The position numbers were made by a program, and so were the translations under genes. From the NCBI RefSeq assembly GCF_009931435.1, contig NZ_CP043414.1: DNA of 64,000 nt. One strand, 5' to 3'. The notes beneath the pieces were generated by a model. That model did not search any database. It worked only from the letters and a program-made list of their open reading frames with translations, and was not told where the DNA came from. Below, one piece after another: positions 3,643-62,230 of this stretch (position 1 is the first letter of the stretch; every line of letters starts with the position of its first letter). The DNA comes from Escherichia coli (GTDB lineage Bacteria; Pseudomonadota; Gammaproteobacteria; Enterobacterales; Enterobacteriaceae).

Positions 3643-3665
3643 TGCCGGATGCGATGCATCCGGCA
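3643..3665. terminator. inverted repeat between convergent malQ and gntT
   Basis: Palindrome tgccggatgc/gcatccggca between two convergent stop codons; weak T-run. Confidence 0.3.
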
Positions 3666-5289: not shown

Positions 5290-5322
5290 GCCCGATAAGA
5301 CGCTTTAGCGTCGCATCGGGCA
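5290..5322. repeat. REP-like extragenic palindrome
   Basis: gcccgataagacgctttagcgtcgcatcgggca; imperfect palindrome of the REP family between nfuA and gntT. Confidence 0.5.
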
Positions 5323-8814: not shown

Positions 8815-11135
8815 TAATGGCAATCACCGGTGGTGCTGGCTGCGCAGCAACTGCTTACCGATTTGCGTGTTGCCAGCAGTTCGATATCGACCCGGCTACG
8901 CGCGCGACGCAGCAAACCGATAACCACGATGTTAAACAGGATAACCGCCAGAATGCATACCAGGCTGTAGGTTGGATGCTGGCTGTAGCTGGCGACCTGG
9001 TAGAACAATGTTGCCAACGAGTAAGCGATATTTAGCCCCCACAGGATGGAGAAGCCCATCCAGCCACGGCTTGATTCACGGGCGATGGCTCCCATTACCG
9101 AGATACATGGTACATACAGCAGGACGAAAATCAGGTAGCTGTAAGCTGCTGCTGCGCTACCGAATTTCTGATCCATCACGCCCATCGCCCCGGTACCCAT
9201 TTCGCCGTCGCCTTTGCTCGCTTCAATGGGGTTCATCAGTACGCTAAGACTGAAGGTGTCTTTCAGGCTCTGCCAGGTTTCATCTACCGCGCTGAATAGC
9301 TCTTCACCGAGGTTAAATTCCGCCGGATTGAACTCTTCGTCCTGAATATTTTCTGCGGTGTAGAGGGTGTTGAGCGTACCCACCACCACTTCTTTCGCCA
9401 TTGCGCCTGTAAACAGGCCAACAGTTGCCTGCCAGTTATCTTCATGTACGCCAATCGGCTTGAAGACCGGGGTGATCACCCGGCTGACGGAAGCCAGCGC
9501 CGAGTCGTTGATGTTATCGACGATTTTCCCGCTCAGAGAGAAACTGTTGAAAGCGCTCAGGAAAATGCTGACGATGATAATCACTTTACCAGCACGCAGA
9601 ACGAAACCTTTCAGACGCTGCCAGGTCTGGATAATCAGGCTTTTAACGTGTGGTACATGGTAGACCGGTAGCTCCATGACAAACGGCGTCGCTTCACCGC
9701 GCATGATGGTGTACTTGAGCATCAGGCCAGTCAGCACCGCCATCACAATACCGAGCATATACAGCGAGAAGACCGCCAGCGCACCGTTCTGCCCGAAGAA
9801 GGCAGCCGCGAATACGGCGAAGATAGCCAGACGCGCGCCGCAGGACATAAACGGTGCCATCATGATGGTCATCAGACGTTCACGCGGTGCATCAAGCGTA
9901 CGTGCGCCCATTACCGACGGTACGTTACAACCGAAACCAACGATCAGCGGTACAAAGGATTTCCCGGGCAAGCCCAGCGCCTGCATCAGGCGGTCCATCA
10001 CAAACGCCGCACGCGCCATATACCCGGAGTCCTCAAGGAAGGAGAGGAACAGGTACATCATGCCGATCTGTGGCACCAGTGGCAGAACGGTGTTAATACC
10101 GCCACCCAAGCCCTGGGCGAGGAAGATAGTCAGCCAGTCCGGGAAGTGGAGCGTGTAGCCAATCCACTGAATACCATGCACAAATAGCGCCACGGAGCCG
10201 ACGTCAAACAGCGGCTGTAACGCCCCGCCGATGTTGATAGCCAGCAGGAACATCAGGTACATCACAAAGAGGAAAATCGGCAGACCGAGGAAACGGTTGA
10301 GCACGATTTTATCTACCGCAGTGGTGAAACGGCTGGGTTCTGCCGTCAGGGTGTTGCTTACCACATCACAGATGGCAGCAATGCACTGGTAACGCGCATC
10401 GGCAATGTGCAGCGCCGGATCGTCCATCTCATTACGCAGACGGGCGAGGGCGGCATCAAGATGCTGCGACGCTTCACCGGCGTAGGCGCGGCTGTAGATA
10501 TCGCCTTCCAGCATTTGCAGGCCCAGCCAGCGACGTTGTTTCAGCGGGATGTCGGAAGGCATCACTTTTGCCAGTGAATCTGCTTCGTTGAGCAGCGGCT
10601 GTGCGTAATGCACCAGTTCCACATTGTCGTTAGCTTTATAGCGGTCAATCGCCAGCTTGAGCGCTTCAATACCCCGACCACGGGTTGATACCAGCGGGAT
10701 CACCGGGCAGCCAAGACGTGCCGACAGCGCATCAATTTCAATGCGAATATTTTGCTTCTCGGCAATGTCGAGCATATTCAGCGCCACGATGCAGGGAATG
10801 CCGAGTTCCAGCAGTTGTAGCGTCAGGTACAGGTTACGCTCAAGGTTAGACGCATCCACCACGTTAATCAGCAGGTCAGCGTCGCCACTCAAAATGTAGT
10901 GACAGGCGATTTGCTCATCGAGCGAGGTCTGCGATGAGATGGTGGTCAGAGAATAGGTGCCGGGCAGGTCCACCAGCGTGACCTGATGATCGGTGGTGGA
11001 GAATTGCCCTTCTTTACGTTCGACGGTAACGCCAGCCCAGTTACCTACACGCTGACGTGCGCCAGTGAGCTGGTTAAATAAGGTTGTCTTGCCAGAATTT
11101 GGATTACCAATTAAGCCAATGGTTAATTTTTTCAT
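8814..11135 (-). CDS. feoB: ferrous iron transporter FeoB
   Basis: N-terminal G-domain ([12 protein letters not shown]) followed by polytopic membrane domain; 773 aa from the MKKLTIG start. Confidence 0.95.
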
Positions 11136-11151
11136 TGTTGTTATCACCGTA

Positions 11152-11379
11152 TTAACAGGAAACCGCTTCCACTTCTAATAAGGCCAGATCTTTTTTGCGT
11201 AATACCAGGCTCACTCGACGGGTTTCGATATGAATGGGGTCGCCAAGTGGAGCGACGCGCACCACATTAAAAGAGGAGCCAGGTAACATGCCAAGAGAAA
11301 GCAGTTTTTGGCGATATGCCGGGCTGATTTCACGGGAAAAGCCAGTGATTTTCCACGCAGTATCTGGAGTGTATTGCAT
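11152..11379 (-). CDS. feoA: ferrous iron transport protein FeoA
   Basis: 75-aa ORF immediately upstream of feoB; recognised as FeoA. Confidence 0.92.
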
Positions 11380-11492
11380 AGGTGCCTACTTGTTTCTCAT
11401 TAACTGGATAACTACCTCATGGGGCGTTTGACAGCGACATGAGACCAGATGATTTGCCAACGAAGGAGAGATTAAATAATCAACAACACAAT

Positions 11493-11511
11493 GATAATGA
11501 GAATGGTTTCT
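11493..11511. promoter_or_regulatory. putative Fur box upstream of feoABC
   Basis: gataatgagaatggtttc matches roughly 15 of 19 positions of the GATAATGATAATCATTATC consensus, about 115 bp upstream of the feoA start. Confidence 0.4.
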
Positions 11512-11762
11512 ATCAGCAATACTTAAAATGTGTGCGAATGTTGGTTTAGATAATAATCTGCGTGAATGTTGATGTGGCTCAAGGTTATATCGCAGCGAAA
11601 ATATAATTCGAATGGCGAATTATCAGGGCGGGTTAATGTTTAATTAAGGTTTCAGTTGTTAATGAAGTGATAAATATTGACGAAATATAGTGTGAGTTTG
11701 GTTGTGGAATAAAAATGCCGGAGATATTCTCCGGCATTTTTATGTCAGGCATGGCGTTTATT

Positions 11763-11796
11763 GCCAGATGCGGCGTGAACGCCTGATCTGGCCTAC
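11763..11796. repeat. REP element
   Basis: gccagatgcggcgtgaacgcctgatctggcctac, close to the canonical REP sequence; a near-identical copy lies at 41632. Confidence 0.7.
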
Positions 11797-11835
11797 GATC
11801 TTGTGCAAATTCGAACCGTAGGCCAATCAGGAGGT

Positions 11836-14157
11836 TTAACGTTTTTTGCCCATTGCCGCCGCCAGCGCATCCATCATCGCGCTGTTACCGGCAGGCTGCG
11901 CTTCACGACCGCGTGGTTTGGCTGCCGGGCGGTTGTTTTGCGGACGTTCATTACCGCCGCCGCGACGGGCGTTGGTTTCGCCAGGCTGCTCGTCCAGACG
12001 CATAGTCAGGGCGATACGTTTACGCTGAAGATCCACTTCCAGCACTTTCACCTTCACAATGTCGCCCGCTTTCACCACGGTATGCGGATCTTCCACAAAC
12101 TTGTTCGACAATGAAGAGATGTGAACCAGGCCGTCCTGATGCACGCCAATATCGACAAACGCGCCAAAGTTGGTGACGTTGGTCACCGCACCTTCGAGGA
12201 TCATACCCGGTTGCAGGTCGTTCATTGTCTCGACGCCATCGGCAAACTGAGCGGTTTTAAATTCCGGACGCGGATCGCGACCCGGTTTTTCCAGCTCTTT
12301 GATGATGTCAGTTACTGTCGGCACACCGAATTTCTCATCAGTAAAGTCAGACGCTTTCAGGTTACGCAGTTCGCTGCTGTTACCCATCAGATCTTTCAGT
12401 GCCTGCTGTGTTGCTGCCAGAATGCGTTCCACCACCGGATAGGCTTCCGGGTGAACAGTAGAGGCGTCCAGCGGGTTGTCACCGTGGTTAATGCGCAAGA
12501 AACCTGCGCACTGCTCGAAGGCTTTCGGCCCCACACGGCTCACTTTCAGCAGTTGCTGACGGTTCTGGAACTGACCGTTCTCATCGCGCCAGGCCACGAT
12601 GTTTTGCGCCATCATGCGCGTCAGGCCCGCCACGCGGGTTAACAGCGGAACGGAAGCGGTGTTGAGATCGACGCCAACGGCGTTTACGCAGTCTTCTACT
12701 ACTGCATCCAGTTTGCGGGCCAGTTGCGTCTGGCTGACATCATGCTGATACTGACCTACGCCGATAGATTTCGGATCGATTTTCACCAGCTCCGCCAGCG
12801 GATCCTGCAAACGGCGGGCGATAGACACTGCGCCACGCAGCGAAACATCGAGATCCGGGAACTCCTGCGCCGCCAGTTCGGAAGCCGAGTAAACCGACGC
12901 GCCTGCTTCGCTGACGATCACTTTCTGTGCGGTCACTTTCGGAAACTGCTTCTGAACGTCGAGATAGAAACGCTCGGTTTCGCGGGAAGCCGTACCGTTA
13001 CCGATTGCCACCAGTTCAACGTTATGTTTTTCACACAAGGCAGCAACGGTCATCGCTGCTTTTGCGGCTTGTCCGGTGTGCGGATAAATGGTGTCGGTGG
13101 CCACCAGTTTACCCGTCGCATCGACTACCGCCACTTTTACCCCAGTACGCAGACCCGGATCGAGGCCCATCGTTGCACGCAGTCCGGCAGGAGCCGCCAT
13201 CAGAAGATCGTGCAGGTTACGGGCAAAGACGTTGATTGCTTCATCTTCCGCGCGTTCGCGCACGGTACCCATCAGTTCGGTTTCCAGGTGCATCAGCACC
13301 TTGATGCGCCAGGTCCAGCTCACCACGCCTTTGCGCCAGCTATCCGCCGGGGCATTGTTCAGGCGCAGACCGAGGTGATCCATGATGATTTGCTCGCAAT
13401 AGCTCTCTTTTGGCGGTTCGTCGAACTGCGGATCGGCATTTAGCGAAAGCTGGAGTACGCCTTCGTTACGCCCACGGAACATCGCCAGCGCGCGGTGAGA
13501 AGGCACCGTTGACAGCGGTTCGTGATGATCGAAATAGTCGCGGAATTTCGCCCCTTCCTCTTCTTTACCGTTCACCACCGTAGAAACCAAATGCGCGTTC
13601 TTCCACAGATAATCACGCACTTTCGCCAGCAGCGCGGCATCTTCGGCAAACCGTTCCATCAGGATATAGCGCGCGCCGTCCAGCGCGGCTTTGGTATCTG
13701 CTACGCCTTTATCGGCATCAACATATTGTGCAGCGGCGACTTCTGGCGTGTGCGACGGATCGTTCCACAGCAGGTCGGCCAACGGCTCAAGCCCTGCTTC
13801 AATAGCAATTTGCCCGCGGGTGCGGCGTTTAGGTTTGTAGGGCAGGTAGAGGTCTTCGAGTTCGGTTTTACTTAAGGTGGCGTTGATAGCATTCGCCAGT
13901 TCGTCGGTGAGTTTACCTTGCTCGGAAATGGACTTGAGGATTGCCTGACGTCTCTCTTCCAGCTCGCGCAGATAGCTCAGACGCGTTTCCAGATTACGCA
14001 ACTGCGTGTCATCCAGACCGCCGGTGATTTCCTTACGATAACGTGCGATAAACGGCACGGTATTCCCTTCGTCAAGCAGGCGAACGGCAGCGTCAACCTG
14101 TTCCGGGCGCGCCTGAATTTCACCCGCAATAATGCGGCAGAACGAATCATTCATCAT
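11836..14157 (-). CDS. tex: Tex-like transcription accessory protein (S1 domain)
   Basis: 773-aa ORF recognised as YhgF/Tex; C-terminal S1 RNA-binding region. Confidence 0.93.
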
Positions 14158-14957: not shown

Positions 14958-17026
<2,069 letters not shown>

Positions 17027-17034
17027 ATAAAACA

Positions 17035-17064
17035 GGAGGCGAAGGTGCCTCCCGTTTTATTTTG
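17035..17064 (+). terminator. rho-independent terminator after envZ
   Basis: Stem ggaggc/gcctcc followed by cgTTTTaTTTT. Confidence 0.7.
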
Positions 17065-17189
17065 TGCACTCAGTATCTACTGAATGAATACGGTTTCAGA
17101 CATCGGCACCATACGAAGTAAAGTGTACTGTAAGCTGATTGCAGGCTAGCGTATCCTGATTAGTAAAAGCACACTAAAGGAATAGCTTG

Positions 17190-18473
17190 ATGCAACTTAC
17201 CAACGAAGAACAAGTACAGATTGCTCGTATAAAAGAAAAAATCCCACGCATTGCCGCACTGGATCCTGAATGTAAGTTATTCGGTTCTGAAGGTTGGAAA
17301 TATCAATGGCCGAAGCCTGCCAGCGAGGCGGAAATAGCTTCCTGGGAGAAAAAACATAGCGTCACTTTGCCACGGGAATATCGAATTTTTCTTCGCTATA
17401 TCGCTAATGGCGGTCCGGCACATGCCTACGGTCTTGAATCTTTAGGCGGTACAGATATTTATGGCGATATAACAAAAGAAAGCCCTGTACCGCTTTATAT
17501 GACGCAGCAGGATGTTGATGTGTTGAATGCTGGCCGTACAGAAGATGATGAAGAATATAGTTTTTTTGACGGCGCATTGACCATTCTCACCCTGGGATGT
17601 ACTTATGATATTTGCCTGGTGGTGACGGGGCAGTATCGCGGAAGGTTAATGCTGACTGATGGTGATGAAGATTATCCGTTTGATTTTATATATGATAAAA
17701 ATTTCCTCAACTGGTATGAACGCTGGCTGGACGATTTTATTGCTGGCATGAGTATGAAGGGTTTCGATAGAAGTTTGCCAGGAACGCAAATTCAACTGCG
17801 TGAGTGGTTTTTAACTGAGAAAATCCCGGATTTACGTAGATCCATTTTATTCTCGCTATGCCGTTTTCCACAGATAGAACCCGAAACTTTTGCCCTTTGG
17901 GAACATGTTTGCCGCACAGAGAATGATAAAGAATTGTGTGAAGAGGCATTCATAAGATTACGCCAAAAAAAAGTTTCTTGTGCTGCAGATATTTTTCGAC
18001 TCTATTTTACAATGCCAGATGAATTACGTGATATTGCTATTAAAGATCTCCGTTTTGCCTGTAGAGATAGTGTGGTGAATATTGAGGATTATATTCATTC
18101 ACTGTTAATAATAATGCCTGAACTTGACGATGACACTCTATCCTCAGCTGTCTTTGCTATACGAGAAACAGAGTATAATAAATATGATACTTTTCTGCCG
18201 CTTCTCGAACGTATCACTGATGACCGTCAGCAAACATTATTGTGGGCGATGAGTAAGGTGCCTGATTTCAATGAAAGCCGAGGATTCGTTGAGTTGGTAT
18301 TACCGCTTTTTGCATCATCAAAGATGGAGAATGTAAGGAAGGCTATTTTGTTGCTCATTGAAGTTAAAGATAATCGTATTCCACCATTGGTTGATGAAGC
18401 TGCAACTCGTTTCCCTGAACTGACCATTTTACGAGAAAACTACTATCTCAGGACGTGGGGACATAAGCCATAA
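17190..18473 (+). CDS. SMI1/KNR4 (SUKH-1) domain protein with C-terminal helical-repeat extension; accessory cassette gene 1
   Basis: ATG at 17190 preceded by AGGA; N-terminal roughly 190 aa carries SUKH-1 hallmarks (WEKKHSVTLPREYRIFLRYIANGG ... FLNWYERWLDDFI); C-terminal roughly 230 aa is leucine-rich and helical; region visibly AT-rich. Confidence 0.7.
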   Translation: MQLTNEEQVQIARIKEKIPRIAALDPECKLFGSEGWKYQWPKPASEAEIASWEKKHSVTLPREYRIFLRYIANGGPAHAYGLESLGGTDIYGDITKESPVPLYMTQQDVDVLNAGRTEDDEEYSFFDGALTILTLGCTYDICLVVTGQYRGRLMLTDGDEDYPFDFIYDKNFLNWYERWLDDFIAGMSMKGFDRSLPGTQIQLREWFLTEKIPDLRRSILFSLCRFPQIEPETFALWEHVCRTENDKELCEEAFIRLRQKKVSCAADIFRLYFTMPDELRDIAIKDLRFACRDSVVNIEDYIHSLLIIMPELDDDTLSSAVFAIRETEYNKYDTFLPLLERITDDRQQTLLWAMSKVPDFNESRGFVELVLPLFASSKMENVRKAILLLIEVKDNRIPPLVDEAATRFPELTILRENYYLRTWGHKP

Positions 18474-18510
18474 ATTAATGGTTCAGAAATGATCTAACGC
18501 GGAGAAAAAT

Positions 18511-19041
18511 ATGATCAGGGAACATATTCAGCAAGCGATAAATAATAGGTTAGCATTTGATGGCCCATTCAATGTTGTTCCTGAACCTGCAAGCACTGCG
18601 TTTGATAGCCGGATCCCGACATTGAAAAACGGTGTCTGGCAGAAGGCCAGCCCTATGTTGCAGGCGCGTTTTGCACATTGTGGACGTTGGTTAAGCGCTA
18701 CACATGGAAGCTGGCTAAGTATAAGTGACATGGAAACGCTTTGGCAGGAACACATAGAAGATACGTTTCTTGATGAAATCAAAATGAATGCTGTAGCTTC
18801 AAGTGATAATTGGGATAACCATGCCTTGGGACTATTTCGTTCTCATCGCCTGTCACTTTTTGCCGGTAGTGATTACAGTTATGAGATGGTTTTTCTCCTT
18901 TGGCTAGATAGTACCGTTGAGCCAGAGGTCTGGGTTTATGACTGCAATGGGGAATCACGTTATAAAGATCTTAATGATTACCTGAATGCATATATTAATG
19001 ATGACGTAAGCGCCTGTGAGCGCTCCTGGCGAGTAGAATGA
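18511..19041 (+). CDS. hypothetical protein, possibly immunity-like; accessory cassette gene 2
   Basis: 176-aa ORF, ATG with GGAG RBS 7 bp upstream; 37 bp after gene 1; no TM segment seen; family not recognised. Confidence 0.55.
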   Translation: MIREHIQQAINNRLAFDGPFNVVPEPASTAFDSRIPTLKNGVWQKASPMLQARFAHCGRWLSATHGSWLSISDMETLWQEHIEDTFLDEIKMNAVASSDNWDNHALGLFRSHRLSLFAGSDYSYEMVFLLWLDSTVEPEVWVYDCNGESRYKDLNDYLNAYINDDVSACERSWRVE

Positions 19042-19664
19042 ATAGCCCCCCTTGCCCCTTTGATCCACAAACCGCACATTACCTCGGTACAGTGCAAATC
19101 CACTACACCTCAACCACCTTCAACGCTGCCGTTAAGCATTATACCTGTTACATTAAAAAGCGTTTTAAAGGGGTTAAATGGGGAATTGGTACCGCTGGCT
19201 TATTGGCTATATTGCCCATGATCCCACAATGGTTGAAACCTTCTCATGACTTTAAACTCAACGCAATCAGTACGTTAATTCTTCTATTAATGTTGCCACT
19301 CCTCTTATCAATGTTCCTGTTAATCAGCAGAAGAATTAACGATTTTAAGTCAAAAACAAAGCAAGTTACTTTTACGAAACCCGTGCGTTATGCGTTTTAT
19401 TTCGAGGGGATTGTTTTTTATGAATCTCATCAGCAGGGCATACTTCGCTGGGAAGATTTTTATAGCATTGAGTATGAAGAAGATTATTTGTGGCTTTTTC
19501 TGCATTTACCGAAGAGTTGGCCCAGAGAAGCGACGAAAGCGTTTTGCGATATTTTCATTCCCACCAGCGCGATAAAAGCGCAGCCTGAACTGGATACGTT
19601 TTTTCGTGAAACACGCCACTCGCTGGATTATCTGTTTGTCCCGTTTAATTCTGACAGAAAATAA
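19038..19664 (+). CDS. two-TM membrane protein with C-terminal soluble domain (YcxB/bacterial PH-like by eye); accessory cassette gene 3
   Basis: 208-aa ORF; start overlaps gene 2 stop by 4 bp (ATGA); two hydrophobic helices (WGIGTAGLLAILPMIPQWL; AISTLILLLMLPLLLSMFLLI) then about 100-aa soluble tail. Confidence 0.55.
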   Translation: MNSPPCPFDPQTAHYLGTVQIHYTSTTFNAAVKHYTCYIKKRFKGVKWGIGTAGLLAILPMIPQWLKPSHDFKLNAISTLILLLMLPLLLSMFLLISRRINDFKSKTKQVTFTKPVRYAFYFEGIVFYESHQQGILRWEDFYSIEYEEDYLWLFLHLPKSWPREATKAFCDIFIPTSAIKAQPELDTFFRETRHSLDYLFVPFNSDRK

Positions 19665-19700
19665 AAAATCCCCCGTATCTGGTGAAACGGGGGATTTCGT
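19662..19700 (-). terminator. rho-independent terminator of pck, also closing the cassette
   Basis: Stem tcccccgt/acggggga; on the minus strand it is followed by TTTTTTA; lies 3 bp after the gene 3 stop and 17 bp after the pck stop. Confidence 0.7.
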
Positions 19701-19716
19701 CGCTTAACTTATCGGA

Positions 19717-21339
19717 TTACAGTTTTGGACCAGCCGCTACCAGCGCGGCACCCGCAGGGGTGTCGGTGTATTTATCGAAGTTGTCGATAAACAGTTTCGC
19801 CAGCGTTTCAGCTTTTTCCTGCCACTGTTCCGGAGAAGCGTAGGTGTTACGCGGATCGAGGATCTTAGTGTCTACGCCCGGCAGTTCAGTCGGGATCGCC
19901 AGGTTAAACATCGGCAGAGTGAAGGTTTCTGCGTTATCCAGCGAACCGTTGAGGATAGCGTCGATAATGGCGCGGGTATCTTTAATGGAGATACGTTTGC
20001 CAGTACCGTTCCAGCCAGTGTTAACCAGATATGCCTGCGCACCCGCCGCTTGCATACGTTTCACCAGCACTTCTGCGTACTGAGTTGGGTGCAGCGACAG
20101 GAACGCCGCGCCGAAGCAAGCGGAGAAGGTTGGCGTCGGTTCGGTGATGCCACGTTCAGTACCGGCCAGTTTGGCGGTGAAGCCAGAGAGGAAGTGGTAC
20201 TGAGTTTGATCGGCAGTCAGGCGAGAAACCGGCGGCAGCACACCAAAGGCGTCTGCGGTCAGGAAGATAACTTTAGTTGCGTGGCCCGCTTTGGAAACCG
20301 GTTTAACGATGTTATCGATGTGATAGATCGGATAAGAAACGCGGGTGTTCTCGGTTTTTGAACCATCGTCAAAATCGATAGTGCCATCTTCACGTACGGT
20401 GACGTTTTCCAGCAGCGCATCGCGACGGATAGCGTTGTAGATTTCAGGTTCCGCTTCTTTCGACAGCTTGATGGTTTTCGCGTAGCAGCCGCCTTCGAAG
20501 TTAAACACGCCATCGTCATCCCAGCCGTGCTCGTCATCGCCAATCAGGCGACGTTTCGGGTCGGTGGAAAGGGTGGTTTTACCGGTGCCGGAAAGACCAA
20601 AGAACACCGCAACATCGCCTTTCTCGCCAACGTTGGCGGAGCAGTGCATAGAAGCGATGCCTTTCAGCGGCAGCAGGTAGTTCATCATTGAGAACATCCC
20701 TTTCTTCATTTCGCCGCCGTACCAGGTGCCACCAATCAGCTGCATGCGCTCGGTCAGGTTAAACGCCACGAAGTTTTCGGAGTTCAGACCCTGTTCTTTC
20801 CACTGCGGGTTAGTGCATTTTGCGCCGTTCATAACGATAAAGTCAGGTTTAAAACCAGCCAGCTCTTCATCGCTCGGGCGAATAAACATGTTTTTGACAA
20901 AATGCGCCTGCCAGGCCACTTCGGTGATGAAACGGACGGAAAGACGCGTGTCTGGGTTCGCACCACAGAAAGCGTCGACAACGAACAGACGTTTACCGGA
21001 AAGCTGTTTGGTCACCAGGCCCTTCAGATGCTGCCAGGTTTCCGGAGAGAGAGGTTTGTTGTCGTTCTTACCTTTGCCTTTATCAGCCCACCAGAAGGTA
21101 TCGCGAGTGGTATCGTCACGGACGATATATTTATCTTTTGGTGAGCGACCGGTGAATATACCGGTATCGACGGCAACGGCACCCAGATTAGTTAACACCC
21201 CGCGCTCATAACCTGTCAGGCTCGGATCGAGCTCTTCCTGATACAGCAGGTCGTAGCTTGGGTTGTAAACGATATCATGTACGTCACTGATACCATAAGC
21301 CTCGAGTTCTTGCGGGGTCAAACCATTGTTAACGCGCAT
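19717..21339 (-). CDS. pck: phosphoenolpyruvate carboxykinase (ATP)
   Basis: 540 aa from [12 protein letters not shown]; Walker-type GLSGTGKTT motif; ORF track extends 23 codons further upstream. Confidence 0.95.
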
Positions 21340-21717
21340 TTCACTGCTCCTTAGCCAATATGTATTGCCTGAATAGTAAAGTCTTTTTGGGGGTGTTAAC
21401 CGCGACAAGGCTCATAGATTTACGTATCTGGAGAAATTCATATTTGACAAAAAACTCCGTGATTCCTGTCACGAAACGGTTGCTATTATCGCAGAAATAG
21501 CATTTTAGGTGTGGAAAATGTTCTTAAAAGGTTAAATCTTGGTTTATATGGCGGGAATATTGTGAGTGGAATCGCATTCCTGAATGAAATTGATGCAAAT
21601 TCAATCAGTAAAGTATCGATTCACCACGCTAACTTTTTTTGATTATTTTCTGAAAAAAGCAAAATACTACGGCCCGGATGCGATAATTAATCCACCTTTT
21701 GATTCTGGATAACTAAC

Positions 21718-23442
21718 ATGGATAACGTTGAACTTTCACCCGCAACACGCTGGGGAATGATTGCTACCGGATTACTTCAGGGACTGGTTTGTTACCTGCT
21801 GATCGCCTGGCTTGCCGGAAAAAATCTCAGTTGGATTGTTTATGGCGTGCCTGCGACCGTCGCGTTTTCATCCGTTTTACTCTTCTCCGTGATCTCCTTT
21901 AAACAGAAGCGCCTTTGGGGATGGCTGGCGCTGGTGTTTATTGCCACGCTGGGAATGAGCGGCTGGCTGAAGTGGCAAACTGATGGCATGAACCCCTGGA
22001 TAGCTGAAAAGGCGCTTTGGGATTTTGGTTGCTATCTGCTGCTGATGGCAATGTTGTTGCTACCGTGGATACAACAAAGCCTTCGCATCCGCAATGACAG
22101 TAGCCGCTATCGCTATTTTTACCAGTCAGTATGGCATAACGTACTTATATTACTGGTGATTTTTCTCGCCAATGGCCTGACGTGGCTGGTACTTTTACTG
22201 TGGGGCGAGTTGTTTAAACTTGTTGGCATCACGTTTTTCAAAACGCTCTTTTTTTCAACCGACTGGTTTATTTATCTCACGTTAGGTCTGGTTACCGCAC
22301 TGGCGGTGATCCTCGCGCGTACACAGTCACGTTTAATCGACTCTATTCAAAAGTTGTTCACGTTAATCGCCACGGGGTTGCTGCCGTTAGTATCATTGCT
22401 AACCCTGATGTTTATCATCACCCTGCCGTTTACGGGCCTGAGCGCGATTTCTCGCCACATCTCCGCCGCCGGGTTGCTGTTGACGCTGGCCTTTTTGCAA
22501 TTGATTTTAATGGCTATTGTCCGCGATCCGCAAAAAGCGTCACTTCCCTGGACGGGGCCGTTGCGTTGCCTGATTAAAACCGCTCTGCTGGCTGCTCCGC
22601 TGTATGTGTTCGTCGCCGCCTGGGCGTTATGGCTGCGGGTCGCTCAGTACGGCTGGACTGTCGACCGCTTGCAGGGCGCGCTGGCGGTGCTGGTGTTACT
22701 GGTATGGTCGCTGGGGTATTTTGTCAGTATCGTCTGGCGTAAAGGGCAAACCCCTCTTGTTCTTCAGGGCAAAGTGAACCTTGCGGTTTCGTTATTGGTG
22801 TTGGTAATACTGGTGCTTCTTAATTCGCCGGTGCTGGATAGTATGCGCATTAGTGCGAACAGTCATATGGCACGTTATCAGAGCGGCAAGAACACGCCAG
22901 ATCAGGTAAGTCTCTACATGCTCGAACAGAACGGTCGCTATGGACGTGCGGCGCTTGAGTCGCTGAAAAGCGATGCCGAGTATATGAAAGACCCGAAACG
23001 CGCACGGGATCTGCTGATGACGTTAGATGGAGAGCAACATCTTCAGGAACAGGTATCGGAAAAAGTATTAGCCGAAAATGTGTTAATTGCCCCAGGCTCT
23101 GGCAAACCGGATACGGCATTCTGGTCGGCCTTAATCCAGGATCGCTATAACGTGATGACCTGTATTGAAAAACACGCCTGCGTACTGGTCGAGCAAGATC
23201 TGAATAGTGATGGTCAGGCGGAGCGGATCCTGTTTGCTTTTAATGATGACAGAGTCATTGTCTATGGCTTTGACCCGGCCAGAAAAGAATGGGACGCGCT
23301 TGATATGAGTATACTTCCGAACGAAATAACGAAAGAAAAATTACTCACAGCTGCGAAGGATGGAAAGCTGGGGACGAGGCCGAAAGCGTGGCGCGATCTG
23401 ACGGTAGATGGTGAAACGCTGGAAATAAACTTAAGCAAATGA
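21718..23442 (+). CDS. yhgE: inner membrane protein YhgE
   Basis: 574-aa polytopic membrane protein divergent from pck; recognised as YhgE. Confidence 0.85.
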
Positions 23443-23498
23443 CAATGCTTTTATCGGATACGACGCTTTATCTTACCAACAATAACTTGTGAATTATT

Positions 23499-23530
23499 GC
23501 GTAGGCCTGGTAAGCGCAGCGCATCAGGCC
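23499..23530. repeat. REP-like palindrome
   Basis: gcgtaggcctggtaagcgcagcgcatcaggcc. Confidence 0.55.
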
Positions 23531-23540
23531 ATTACGTCGT

Positions 23541-23568
23541 AAAATCCGGCAGAGCACTCTCTGCCGGA
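23541..23568 (-). terminator. putative terminator downstream of hslO
   Basis: Hairpin tccggcagag/ctctgccgga with T-run on the minus strand. Confidence 0.5.
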
Positions 23569-23576
23569 CATACTCA

Positions 23577-28653: not shown

Positions 28654-28683
28654 GCCTGATGCACAATGCTTATCAGGCCTGCG
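28654..28683. repeat. REP-like palindrome
   Basis: gcctgatgcacaatgcttatcaggcctgc. Confidence 0.5.
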
Positions 28684-28721
28684 CGGCTCCTGCAATATAT
28701 TGATTTTTATCGATATTTTCA

Positions 28722-28751
28722 GACGGATAACGTGTTCACGCCGTATCCGGT
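28722..28751. repeat. REP-like palindrome
   Basis: gacggataacgtgttcacgccgtatccggt, resembling the inverse orientation of canonical REP. Confidence 0.5.
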
Positions 28752-28781: not shown

Positions 28782-28807
28782 GAAAAAGGCGCCGAAGCGC
28801 CTTTTTA
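28782..28807. terminator. bidirectional terminator between nudE and mrcA
   Basis: aaaaaggcgc cgaa gcgccttttt; perfect stem with A-run and T-run on both sides. Confidence 0.75.
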
Positions 28808-41598: not shown

Positions 41599-41631
41599 TT
41601 CACTATTGCTGGCAAATTGCGCTTTGTTCAT

Positions 41632-41729
41632 GCCAGATGCGGCGTGAACGCCTTATCTGGCCTACAAAGTAATGCACATTCAACATATTGCAAGGAAATG
41701 TAGGCCTGATAAGCGTAGCGCATCAGGTA
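41632..41729. repeat. BIME (two inverted REP units)
   Basis: gccagatgcggcgtgaacgccttatctggcctac ... gtaggcctgataagcgtagcgcatcaggta. Confidence 0.7.
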
Positions 41730-41894
41730 ATTTTGCTTTTATCATCACTCTGAAACCGGGGAAACTCGGTTTTTTATCCTCTTTTCGCAACAACCCGAAA
41801 AAATGTGAAGCGCCTCGCCATTTCCATATCTCATAGTTGCCACTTATCTTCAATTTAATGAAGATATAAATATTCACTTTATTGAAAATTTACT

Positions 41895-49304: not shown

Positions 49305-49343
49305 TTCTGGGACCGATGTTTTCGCAGAGTATGGAGAAAAATA

Positions 49344-58828: not shown

Positions 58829-60064
<1,236 letters not shown>

Positions 60065-60098
60065 ATAAGACACGTCAGCGTCGCATCAGGCAAAAGAT

Positions 60099-60128
60099 GT
60101 CGGATGCGGCGTGAACGCTGTATCCGAA
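60099..60128. repeat. REP-like palindrome
   Basis: gtcggatgcggcgtgaacgctgtatccga between argD and yhfK. Confidence 0.55.
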
Positions 60129-60139
60129 GGTAGCCTGTA

Positions 60140-62230
60140 TTACGCCTTCGAATCCCGCAACTTGCGACTCAGCCAAATCCCATGATGTGGTCGCTGACGC
60201 CATGCCATCGACGAAATGGTGTGCATGGTGTTCAGATGACCAATAACCCGCTGTAAATGCTGCTCCAGCGTACCTGCCGCGCCTTCGTGCGGCTGCATCT
60301 CCGGCGCATCCATGATATTGGCATCGCCAGAACTCCCCGGTTCGTCATATTCCAGTCGCTGCTGACAACGCTGAATGGCGATTTCACAAGACTGCAAATA
60401 TTCTTGCGCCAGTTCAGGTGGTAATGCCCGGTGTTCCCGTGCCAGCGTGGTCATGGCATTGATATGCTCAACAATAAACTGACTGTGCGTTACCCACAGT
60501 TTCATATCTGCCAGATAATGGCTGTTGAATGCCGGTTCCTGCATCGCCTGATTCAATGAGTTATACAGAGTGTTATGCGCCTGATTCACCCGCATTCGCT
60601 GCCAGGCCAGTGGCGTTGGTTGCGGATCTTCACTCAGAATCAAACGAATCGCTTCCTGATAGGCTTCTAAAGCGTCATGGGCGTTTTTACGCAATAACCC
60701 GCTCTGCCACTGCGGCCACAGCCAGACTGTTCCGCCGAAAGCAATCAAACAACCAATAATGGTGTCGATAAGACGCGGAAGGATGTACTGCTCACCGTTC
60801 AGCCACAACAGTTGCAGGGTATATACTGCGGTAATGGTAAAACCGACCGTCGCCCAGCCGTAGTTTTTGCGCAATATCAGGTAGCTGGCGAGGGTGGTAA
60901 TCAGCATCAAGGTCAGGGTGTAACCTTCGGGAATTTTAAAGTGCAGCGCCACGCCCGCAATGATTAACCCGACCACGGTTCCCACGGAGCGATTCACAAT
61001 CCTCAGACGGGTTGCGCCATAGCCATTTTGCGTTACCAGCAATACTGTCATCAGGATCCAGTACGACTTCGGCAGATGCAGCGCGGTGCCCATCAGGCTG
61101 GCAACGCTTAACATCACACTGAGTCGTCCAGCATTGCGTAGCGCTGGAGATTTCAGTGACAGATAACTTTTTAGCGCCGGCAGTAACGGCATTCGCCGCT
61201 GTTTATCGGCCAGTAAATCACGGGCATAGAGCGGTTTTTGGGTGCGTAGTACACGAGCGATGCGGCTGAAGTGCCAATAGCAGAATTGCCCAACAGGATT
61301 ATCCGGATGCTGGCGGGCGATTTTTTCCAGTGCGCCAATTTGTTTTTCCATCGTAAAGCGCGTCGGCAGGCGATGGTAAAGAATGTCATCAGCCAGCACG
61401 CGCAGGCGAGTGGCGACAGTTTGCGCATTCCAGCGGATAACTTCTTCTGCATGGCTACGCTCGACCAGCTTTTGCACCTCTTCCGGCTGATGCAAACTGA
61501 CCGAAATATGTTCCTGCAAATCCAGCGCCTCCTGGAAAATACGCAGCATCCGCTTGTAATCGGTATTATTTTGCGCGGAAAGCATATGCATTTGCTGATA
61601 GCACTGGGTAATTAAATCGACCGCTTTTTGCTGGCGCACCAGCAGCGGCGGCAGCGCTTTTTCAGGGTCGGTGTGCTGGGTAAGCAGGCTGTATTTAGCT
61701 TCGCAATAATCTGCCAGTTCACGGTACAGCAGACTTAGTGACTCGCGCAGCGGTTGTTCGCGCCAGATCCAGAACCAAAACCAGTTAAACAATCCGTACC
61801 AGAGAGTGCCCAACGCATAGATGAGCAACGGTTCCCAGACTGGCATGTATCCCGCCAGACTGAGGGTAAAAATGGCGGCGAGCAGCGATGCGGGAAGCAA
61901 TTTTGCGTGCAATGGCCCCAGCTCAGCAGTGACGCCAAGTACCAGCGTTAGTCCAGTCAGCAAAAAGGGCAAGGGAACATCTTTTGCCAGTAACAGCTGT
62001 GTCAGCAAGCTACAGGTGGCAAACAGCGACGCACCAATGATTAAGCGTTTGAAAAAACGTTTATGAGGCGTATCAAGGCCCGCAATATTGCAACAAGCAG
62101 GAACGAGGGAGAAGAGCAGACCGAATCGTAATTCGCCAAGCATTAACCCAACGGCCACGGGCAAACATAGCACTAGCGTTTGTCGTAGTGCATAGTTGAT
62201 ATCGGGGTGATAAATCAGTCTGCGCCACAT
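60140..62230 (-). CDS. yhfK: inner membrane protein YhfK (FUSC-like)
   Basis: Large membrane protein; ATG start at 62230 (MWRRLIYHP); ORF track begins 4 codons upstream at a TTG. Confidence 0.85.
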   Translation of the reverse strand: MWRRLIYHPDINYALRQTLVLCLPVAVGLMLGELRFGLLFSLVPACCNIAGLDTPHKRFFKRLIIGASLFATCSLLTQLLLAKDVPLPFLLTGLTLVLGVTAELGPLHAKLLPASLLAAIFTLSLAGYMPVWEPLLIYALGTLWYGLFNWFWFWIWREQPLRESLSLLYRELADYCEAKYSLLTQHTDPEKALPPLLVRQQKAVDLITQCYQQMHMLSAQNNTDYKRMLRIFQEALDLQEHISVSLHQPEEVQKLVERSHAEEVIRWNAQTVATRLRVLADDILYHRLPTRFTMEKQIGALEKIARQHPDNPVGQFCYWHFSRIARVLRTQKPLYARDLLADKQRRMPLLPALKSYLSLKSPALRNAGRLSVMLSVASLMGTALHLPKSYWILMTVLLVTQNGYGATRLRIVNRSVGTVVGLIIAGVALHFKIPEGYTLTLMLITTLASYLILRKNYGWATVGFTITAVYTLQLLWLNGEQYILPRLIDTIIGCLIAFGGTVWLWPQWQSGLLRKNAHDALEAYQEAIRLILSEDPQPTPLAWQRMRVNQAHNTLYNSLNQAMQEPAFNSHYLADMKLWVTHSQFIVEHINAMTTLAREHRALPPELAQEYLQSCEIAIQRCQQRLEYDEPGSSGDANIMDAPEMQPHEGAAGTLEQHLQRVIGHLNTMHTISSMAWRQRPHHGIWLSRKLRDSKA

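Follow-up and report, generated by a model that had tools for sequence, protein, structure and literature searches.

The palindromic units in the analyzed stretch of Escherichia coli DNA (64,000 nt, hereafter the window) are textbook REP/BIME repeats. Such repeats have been known since the 1980s, so that the elements described here are already known as a class. Their identity as REPs is near certain. In addition, we consider it very probable that the following, more comprehensive reading applies: the units belong to the E. coli REP (palindromic unit) family, are partly organised as BIMEs, were spread by the transposase TnpA_REP and are now transcribed as hairpins of 3' untranslated regions (3' UTRs), where they would act as context-dependent decay barriers or partial terminators. 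The window itself is an ordinary E. coli-type chromosome.

Detection, position, and folding of the REP units

The 34-nt pattern GCCAGATGCGGCGTGAACGCCTNATCTGGCCTAC has two exact matches in the window, at 11763-11796 (+) and 41632-41665 (+), and the two 34-mers differ solely at the N position (G vs. T). Allowing up to three mismatches added no further match in the window and gave none in 100 dinucleotide-preserving shuffles. A preliminary description of this DNA had called these units near-identical, a term that is borne out for the two y units, while the remaining ones are degenerate or fall into other REP classes. Both strands were scanned, with edit distance as the measure, for the classical consensus sequences of the three E. 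coli REP classes y, z1, and z2 (class lengths of ~35, ~29, and ~37 nt; PMC8266576, PMC3333891), employing a threshold of ≤24% edits and 40 dinucleotide shuffles as control. Nine REP units at six loci were obtained, four of them with ≤4 edits, and zero matches were found in the shuffles. The proposed similarity to the REP consensus is thereby confirmed. A looser threshold of ≤32% edits was dropped as noise, given ~22 matches per shuffle, and was not used to add members. The nine units are:

5290-5321, minus strand: z2-like REP unit, C.G at stem pair 4, hairpin of -22.5 kcal/mol (z -5.0)
11763-11796, plus strand: y-type REP unit (the focal copy), 3 edits from the y consensus, A.T at stem pair 4, CTAC foot intact
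23501-23529, minus strand: lone z1-type REP unit between yhgE and hslO, GTAG foot intact
28654-28682, plus strand: z1-type REP unit, foot degenerate (CTGC)
28720-28751, minus strand: degenerate y-type REP unit, inverted partner of the former, 8 edits, foot lost, -9.5 kcal/mol (z -1.0)
41632-41665, plus strand: y-type REP unit of a BIME-1, -19.8 kcal/mol (z -5.0), CTAC foot intact
41700-41728, minus strand: z1-type REP unit, inverted partner of the former, 1 edit from consensus, GTAG foot intact
60065-60091, minus strand: truncated z2-type REP unit directly past the argD stop codon (60062-60064), cut short by the end of argD
60100-60127, plus strand: degenerate y-like REP hairpin, no CTAC foot, -20.2 kcal/mol (z -5.7)

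On direct reading, all six palindromes that had been listed as relatives of the two y units (5290-5321, 23501-23529, 28654-28682, 28720-28751, 41700-41728, and 60100-60127) proved to be of REP type. The earlier listing stands for these eight units; the two BIME-1 elements, the partial unit 11818-11831, the truncated unit 60065-60091, and the hairpin 3643-3665 had been overlooked. The families of a repeat search join 11763, 41632, and 60099 (D4), 23501 and 41700 (D15), 28652 and 41702 (I7), and 28724 and 60101 (I20). At gathering thresholds, Rfam delivered no match at all in the window, and none of its families covers these elements at this cutoff.

Gene positions were taken from K-12 genes mapped onto the window and from the PGAP annotation of 2013C-4282, a related strain. 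Each of the nine units is extragenic, the extragenic share of the window being 9.0%, and the probability that six independent loci are all extragenic by chance is ~5e-7. At least one gene 3' end is present at every locus, in agreement with the earlier claim that the units always occur in intergenic regions past gene 3' ends. Three spacers are tandem, three are convergent and none is divergent:

REP 5290: nfuA > gntT, tandem, 22 nt past the nfuA stop
REP 11763: tex (yhgF) > feoA, tandem, 39 nt past the tex stop
REPs 41632/41700: trpS > yhfZ, tandem, 33 nt past the trpS stop
REP 23501: yhgE / hslO, convergent
REPs 28654/28720: nudE / mrcA, convergent, 13 nt past the nudE stop
REPs 60065/60100: argD / yhfK, convergent, first base right after the argD stop

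This split matches the one reported genome-wide, which comprises ~40% tandem, 60% convergent, and 1% divergent spacers (bioRxiv 10.64898/2026.03.23.713779).

The well-kept units fold as bulged hairpins of -11 to -22.5 kcal/mol (z -2 to -5.7), in which a 2x2 interior loop separates an outer stem of 7 bp from an inner stem, while the truncated 60065 unit and the decayed 28720 unit fold weakly. In an alignment of 14 units from the window and K-12, 94.5% of the stem cells pair, vs. 25-40% with slid partners. Stem pair 4, by which y units (G.C) are told apart from z units (T.A), occurs as G.C, U.A, A.U, and C.G across these 14 units. However, since the copies are paralogous, part of this covariation reflects sub-family structure and not independent events. 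The GTAG/CTAC foot is intact in four of the nine units (11763, 23501, 41632, and 41700) and mutated or lost in the other five (5290, 28654, 28720, 60065, and 60100).

Neither 11763 nor 41632 carries a U-run, and a terminator scanner flags nothing at them; one terminator-like site that it does flag, 60087-60069, lies within the truncated z2 unit. Hairpins followed by U-runs were found instead next to the REPs:

11711-11741, minus strand: intrinsic terminator of tex, GC-rich hairpin and U-run, fold of -23.1 kcal/mol (z -9.1)
~23546-23570: hslO terminator, hairpin and U-run
28783-28806: nudE/mrcA terminator, hairpin and U-run, bidirectional
~41752-41775: trpS terminator, hairpin and U-run

The tex, trpS, and hslO terminators were demonstrated by folding, as the simple scanner missed all three, at tex because A/T runs were absorbed into the stem. 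Since terminators lie beyond the REPs at tex, trpS, and nudE, these REPs are located in 3' UTRs, upstream of the real terminators.

The individual loci in comparison with K-12 and strain 2013C-4282

The window is collinear with positions 3,551,616 to 3,485,033 of K-12 MG1655 (malP to prkB) in reversed orientation and at an identity of ~96%; gene by gene, identity ranges from 89.5% (yhfX) to 99.8% (dam). All but one of 5426 complete E. coli genomes contain the tested 1.6 kb segment (11000-12600), the best match having 99.0% identity. Close relatives at the two tested loci amount to ~13-19 of the 5426 genomes, with 98.6-99.0% identity across 11000-12600 and 99.2-99.4% across the envZ-pck insert described below. 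Given so few close relatives and ~96% identity to K-12, the source is a rare, divergent lineage of E. coli. As the MG1655 RefSeq annotation no longer contains REP features, REP units of K-12 were located by our own consensus scan. K-12 has a REP/BIME at the orthologous site for five of the six loci and half a unit at the sixth (yhgE/hslO). The four loci within the compared segment of 2013C-4282 are identical to the window.

Besides the units and terminators, the loci comprise the following features:

3643-3665, no strand assigned: collapsed BIME, a perfect 23-nt hairpin TGCCGGATGCGATGCATCCGGCA, -20.2 kcal/mol (z -5.0)
11797-11831, minus strand: 21-nt linker (11797-11817) and truncated inverted REP partner GTAGGCCAATCAGG (11818-11831)
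28683-28719, minus strand: L linker of the nudE/mrcA BIME-1, with the perfect IHF consensus AATCAATATATTG at 28693-28705 (-)
41666-41699, no strand assigned: long (L-type) linker of the trpS BIME-1, 34 nt, with a near-IHF site ATTCAACATATTG (1 mismatch)

At the focal locus, tex is transcribed on the minus strand, and an orthologous copy of the REP is present in both K-12 and strain 2013C-4282. The hairpin of the focal unit folds at -18.8/-19.3 kcal/mol (z -4.1 to -4.8). Its truncated partner at 11818-11831 abuts the tex stop codon (11836-11838) and can be aligned to z1 units at their GTAGGCC...ATCAGG ends, and both together form what we read as a degenerate tail-to-tail REP doublet. In the tex-sense RNA, this partner is predicted to pair with the y-unit foot in an 18-bp helix (MFE -31.4, z -4.4). 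The tex terminator follows 21 nt downstream of the focal REP on the transcribed strand. Consequently, the REP lies inside the tex 3' UTR, past the stop codon. A distinct and strong intrinsic terminator follows it, so the REP is not itself the terminator. By analogy to other REPs, and with modest confidence, we suggest that, within the tex 3' UTR and before the feoABC promoter region is reached, it most likely provides a pause element or a secondary barrier to decay.

The spacer between trpS and yhfZ harbors a BIME-1. Stem pair 4 of its y unit is A.T in the window vs. G.C in K-12; both sides have changed and pairing is kept. In the y unit at K-12 glpD, this pair is in the intermediate state G.T. 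Compared with K-12, the linker is 7 bp longer, and with this insertion (ACATTCA) it comes to one mismatch from the IHF consensus. The corresponding spacer of strain 2013C-4282 (L006 493-761, equivalent to window 41599-41745) contains no BIME-1. In the same slot, from the trpS stop codon to the trpS terminator, a different, G-rich repeat is found (…CCCCTCGCCCCTTTGGGGAGAGGGTTAGGGTGAGGGG…), which presumably resembles the E. coli Box C repeat. The window is nearest to 2013C-4282 at envZ-pck, yet K-12-like at the trpS-yhfZ spacer, and such mixed affinity suggests a recombinant mosaic. An allele ≥99% identical to the trpS BIME-1 was found in only one of 5426 genomes; 3717 of the 5452 matching records reach just 80-90% identity and probably represent matches to a paralogous copy.

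A second BIME-1 occupies the nudE/mrcA spacer. Its linker aligns with that of the trpS BIME-1 and contains an exact match to WATCAANNNNTTR (28693-28705). The IHF pattern by itself is not enriched in the window (5 matches vs. 2.5 expected); the weight of this match comes from its location in a linker in which the family is known to carry an IHF site. The inverted y unit at 28720 has decayed, whereas its K-12 ortholog is nearer to the consensus (4 edits).

At nfuA, the 5290 unit lost its foot through a 10-bp deletion compared with K-12. In the yhgE/hslO spacer the window holds a complete z1 unit, whereas K-12 has just half of one left, the AGCGCATCAGG half. Around this site, window 23422-23518 (yhgE 3' end and hslO spacer) comprises ~85 bp extra vs. 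K-12, and the final 21 nt of K-12 yhgE do not align to the window. Between argD and yhfK, the z2 fragment at 60065 includes 11 nt that are absent in K-12, and the hairpin at 60100 lies 12 nt before the yhfK stop codon (60140-60142), which is on the opposite strand. In the malQ/gntT spacer, 3643-3665 consists of the fused outer halves of two inverted REP units that are present in K-12; the window lacks the inner 66 bp of K-12, and its junction shows a GC microhomology. In 2013C-4282 the spacer has the same length of 44 nt as in the window. Judged from the junction, replication slippage across the BIME hairpin would fit this deletion better than excision by TnpA_REP, because the deletion ends in hairpin loops and not at CT sites by the foot.

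Between envZ and pck, a 2.66 kb insert (17060-19716) takes the place of a K-12 spacer of ~57 bp. Three plus-strand ORFs lie in it, an SMI1/KNR4 (SUKH-1) protein of 428 aa followed by two of 176 and 208 aa. Only 19 of 5426 complete E. coli genomes share the insert. No REP-like sequence is present from 15698 to 22430, even at the noisy ≤32% threshold, the nearest units being 11763 and 23501, and the consensus scan revealed no REP at the empty site of K-12. Thus two earlier statements are supported: no REP flanks the envZ-pck cassette and, with none within or beside the insert, REP-mediated recombination is not obviously responsible for it; the present result goes further and excludes such recombination as the source of the insert. 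Furthermore, the window lacks the frlABCDR fructoselysine operon at 49310-49339 (5.2 kb; K-12 3,499,686-3,504,928). In this K-12 segment, a z2-like REP is located ~107 bp inside the yhfS-side edge (comparison segment L002 24787-24822).

Probable spread and present role of the REP units

By analogy with the family, REPs would have spread through intergenic DNA by means of the single-strand HUH transposase TnpA_REP (RAYT), which reads the hairpin plus the GTAG foot. TnpA_REP requires an unmutated GTAG (PMC8266576, PMC3479197), so only the four units with an intact foot are potential substrates; judged from their feet, the other five are likely immobile relics. Most copies are by now fixed at orthologous sites. 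They would be transcribed into 3' UTRs, because each is located past a stop codon but before its transcription unit ends. There, according to the family literature, the hairpin may, depending on context, hinder 3'-to-5' exonucleases and/or cause partial Rho-dependent termination, and the long linker of BIME-1 elements is expected to bind IHF. The degenerate units 28720, 60065, and 60100 may do nothing. REPs within ~15 nt of a stop codon reportedly reduce translation. The effects of REPs on half-life are reported to be non-uniform, and terminal REPs to have no global effect on it (10.64898/2026.03.23.713779).

The comparison with known systems is consistent with this picture. The window units resemble the E. 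coli y, z1, and z2 REPs in consensus, in the bulged hairpin with an AA/GC-type interior mismatch, in the GTAG/CTAC foot, in their extragenic location at 3' ends, and in high copy number. Nothing categorical sets them apart: stem pair 4 of the two y units 11763 and 41632 is A.T and not G.C, which makes them a minor sub-variant, and degeneration or truncation affects five of the nine units. BIME-1 elements consist of one y and one z1 unit plus a long linker, often with an IHF site, while BIME-2 elements are tandem y/z2 arrays (PMC8266576, PMC3333891). Accordingly, 28654-28751 and 41632-41728 each combine a y and a z1 unit of opposite orientation, as BIME-1 (RIB/RIP) elements do, and occur as a single copy per locus with a linker of 34-37 nt and, at nudE/mrcA, a predicted IHF site. 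They deviate from the type in the imperfect IHF match and the insertion of the trpS linker and in the footless y unit at 28720. With BIME-2 elements, which are gyrase targets, the window shares z2-like units (5290 and 60065). However, no tandem or short-linker y/z2 array exists in the window, with at most two units per locus.

The main rival is that the units are purely selfish, non-autonomous mobile DNA, i.e. REPIN-like doublets moved by a RAYT, that fulfill no host function and whose position reflects nothing but tolerance to insertion. The doublets at four loci do resemble REPINs, being inverted REPs with a spacer. Presence/absence and indel polymorphism among the window, K-12, and 2013C-4282 at malQ/gntT, yhgE/hslO, trpS/yhfZ, and argD/yhfK, the decay of feet or stems in more than half of the units, and the REPIN/RAYT literature (PMC3116915, PMC3337134) point the same way. 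In contrast, the sites at tex, nfuA, and nudE are kept in K-12, 2013C-4282, and the window despite ~4% divergence, and double changes such as G.C to A.T at trpS keep pairing, although gene conversion could mimic such a pattern. Published effects of REPs on termination and mRNA stability argue against a lack of function as well (10.64898/2026.03.23.713779). As for the REPIN/RAYT system, the window sites are orthologous with those of K-12, so they give no sign of recent mobility, and the changes resemble slippage deletions within hairpins and not transposase cuts at the foot. No RAYT or transposase gene is among the window genes, all of which map to K-12 genes except for the three ORFs at envZ-pck; a RAYT elsewhere in this genome is assumed. 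We regard the purely selfish explanation as unlikely, while granting it a substantial minority share of the probability.

Far less probable is the proposal that the units are independently evolved Rho-independent terminators that are alike merely as GC-rich hairpins. They follow gene 3' ends and fold stably, and the scanner site at 60087-60069 falls into the truncated z2 unit. However, the REPs have no U-run and are adjoined by distinct terminators that do (11711-11741, 41752-41775, and 28783-28806); their identity runs, unlike that of terminators, through loops, bulges, and the CTAC foot, and the same sequences occur at at least 18 places per genome. We consider it highly improbable. Chance similarity, in the sense that short GC-rich palindromes are to be expected in 64 kb of enterobacterial DNA, agrees with the many matches in shuffles at ≤32% edits and can practically be dismissed in view of the empty shuffles of both the pattern search and the ≤24% scan, against nine real units that all fall into the 9% extragenic fraction.

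Copy number, strain variation, and implications

REP units are abundant in E. coli genomes. In 5425 of 5426 genomes a 137-nt BIME-1 query finds matches, all unannotated, with a median of at least 18 per genome, and ~600 REPs have been reported for K-12 (PMC8266576). Of the A.T variant, the exact 34-mer has a median of two copies in E. coli genomes; the convergent ybaL/gsk spacer holds one in most E. coli. One might speculate that A.T at stem pair 4, as in the tex, trpS, and ybaL/gsk copies, marks a small and actively homogenised REP sub-class, whose scattered copies are maintained by gene conversion among them or by selection for a protein partner of their own. We consider this improbable. If it were true, the trpS copy would have been converted recently, as its allele is shared by one genome in 5426.

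REP locations are reported to vary between strains, isolates differ in the presence of BIME-1 elements (PMC1187871), and according to published statements BIMEs are a main source of intergenic variation in E. coli. The finding has little meaning beyond annotation, for which the units provide reliable landmarks of six 3' UTRs, the use as internal landmarks that had been proposed for them. What the window documents is typical REP/BIME micro-polymorphism compared with K-12, namely a collapsed BIME, half-deleted units, and one paired substitution, together with an element that is swapped for a different repeat in a related strain. These micro-polymorphisms are the sole mildly notable points, and they are of a kind long described for BIMEs.
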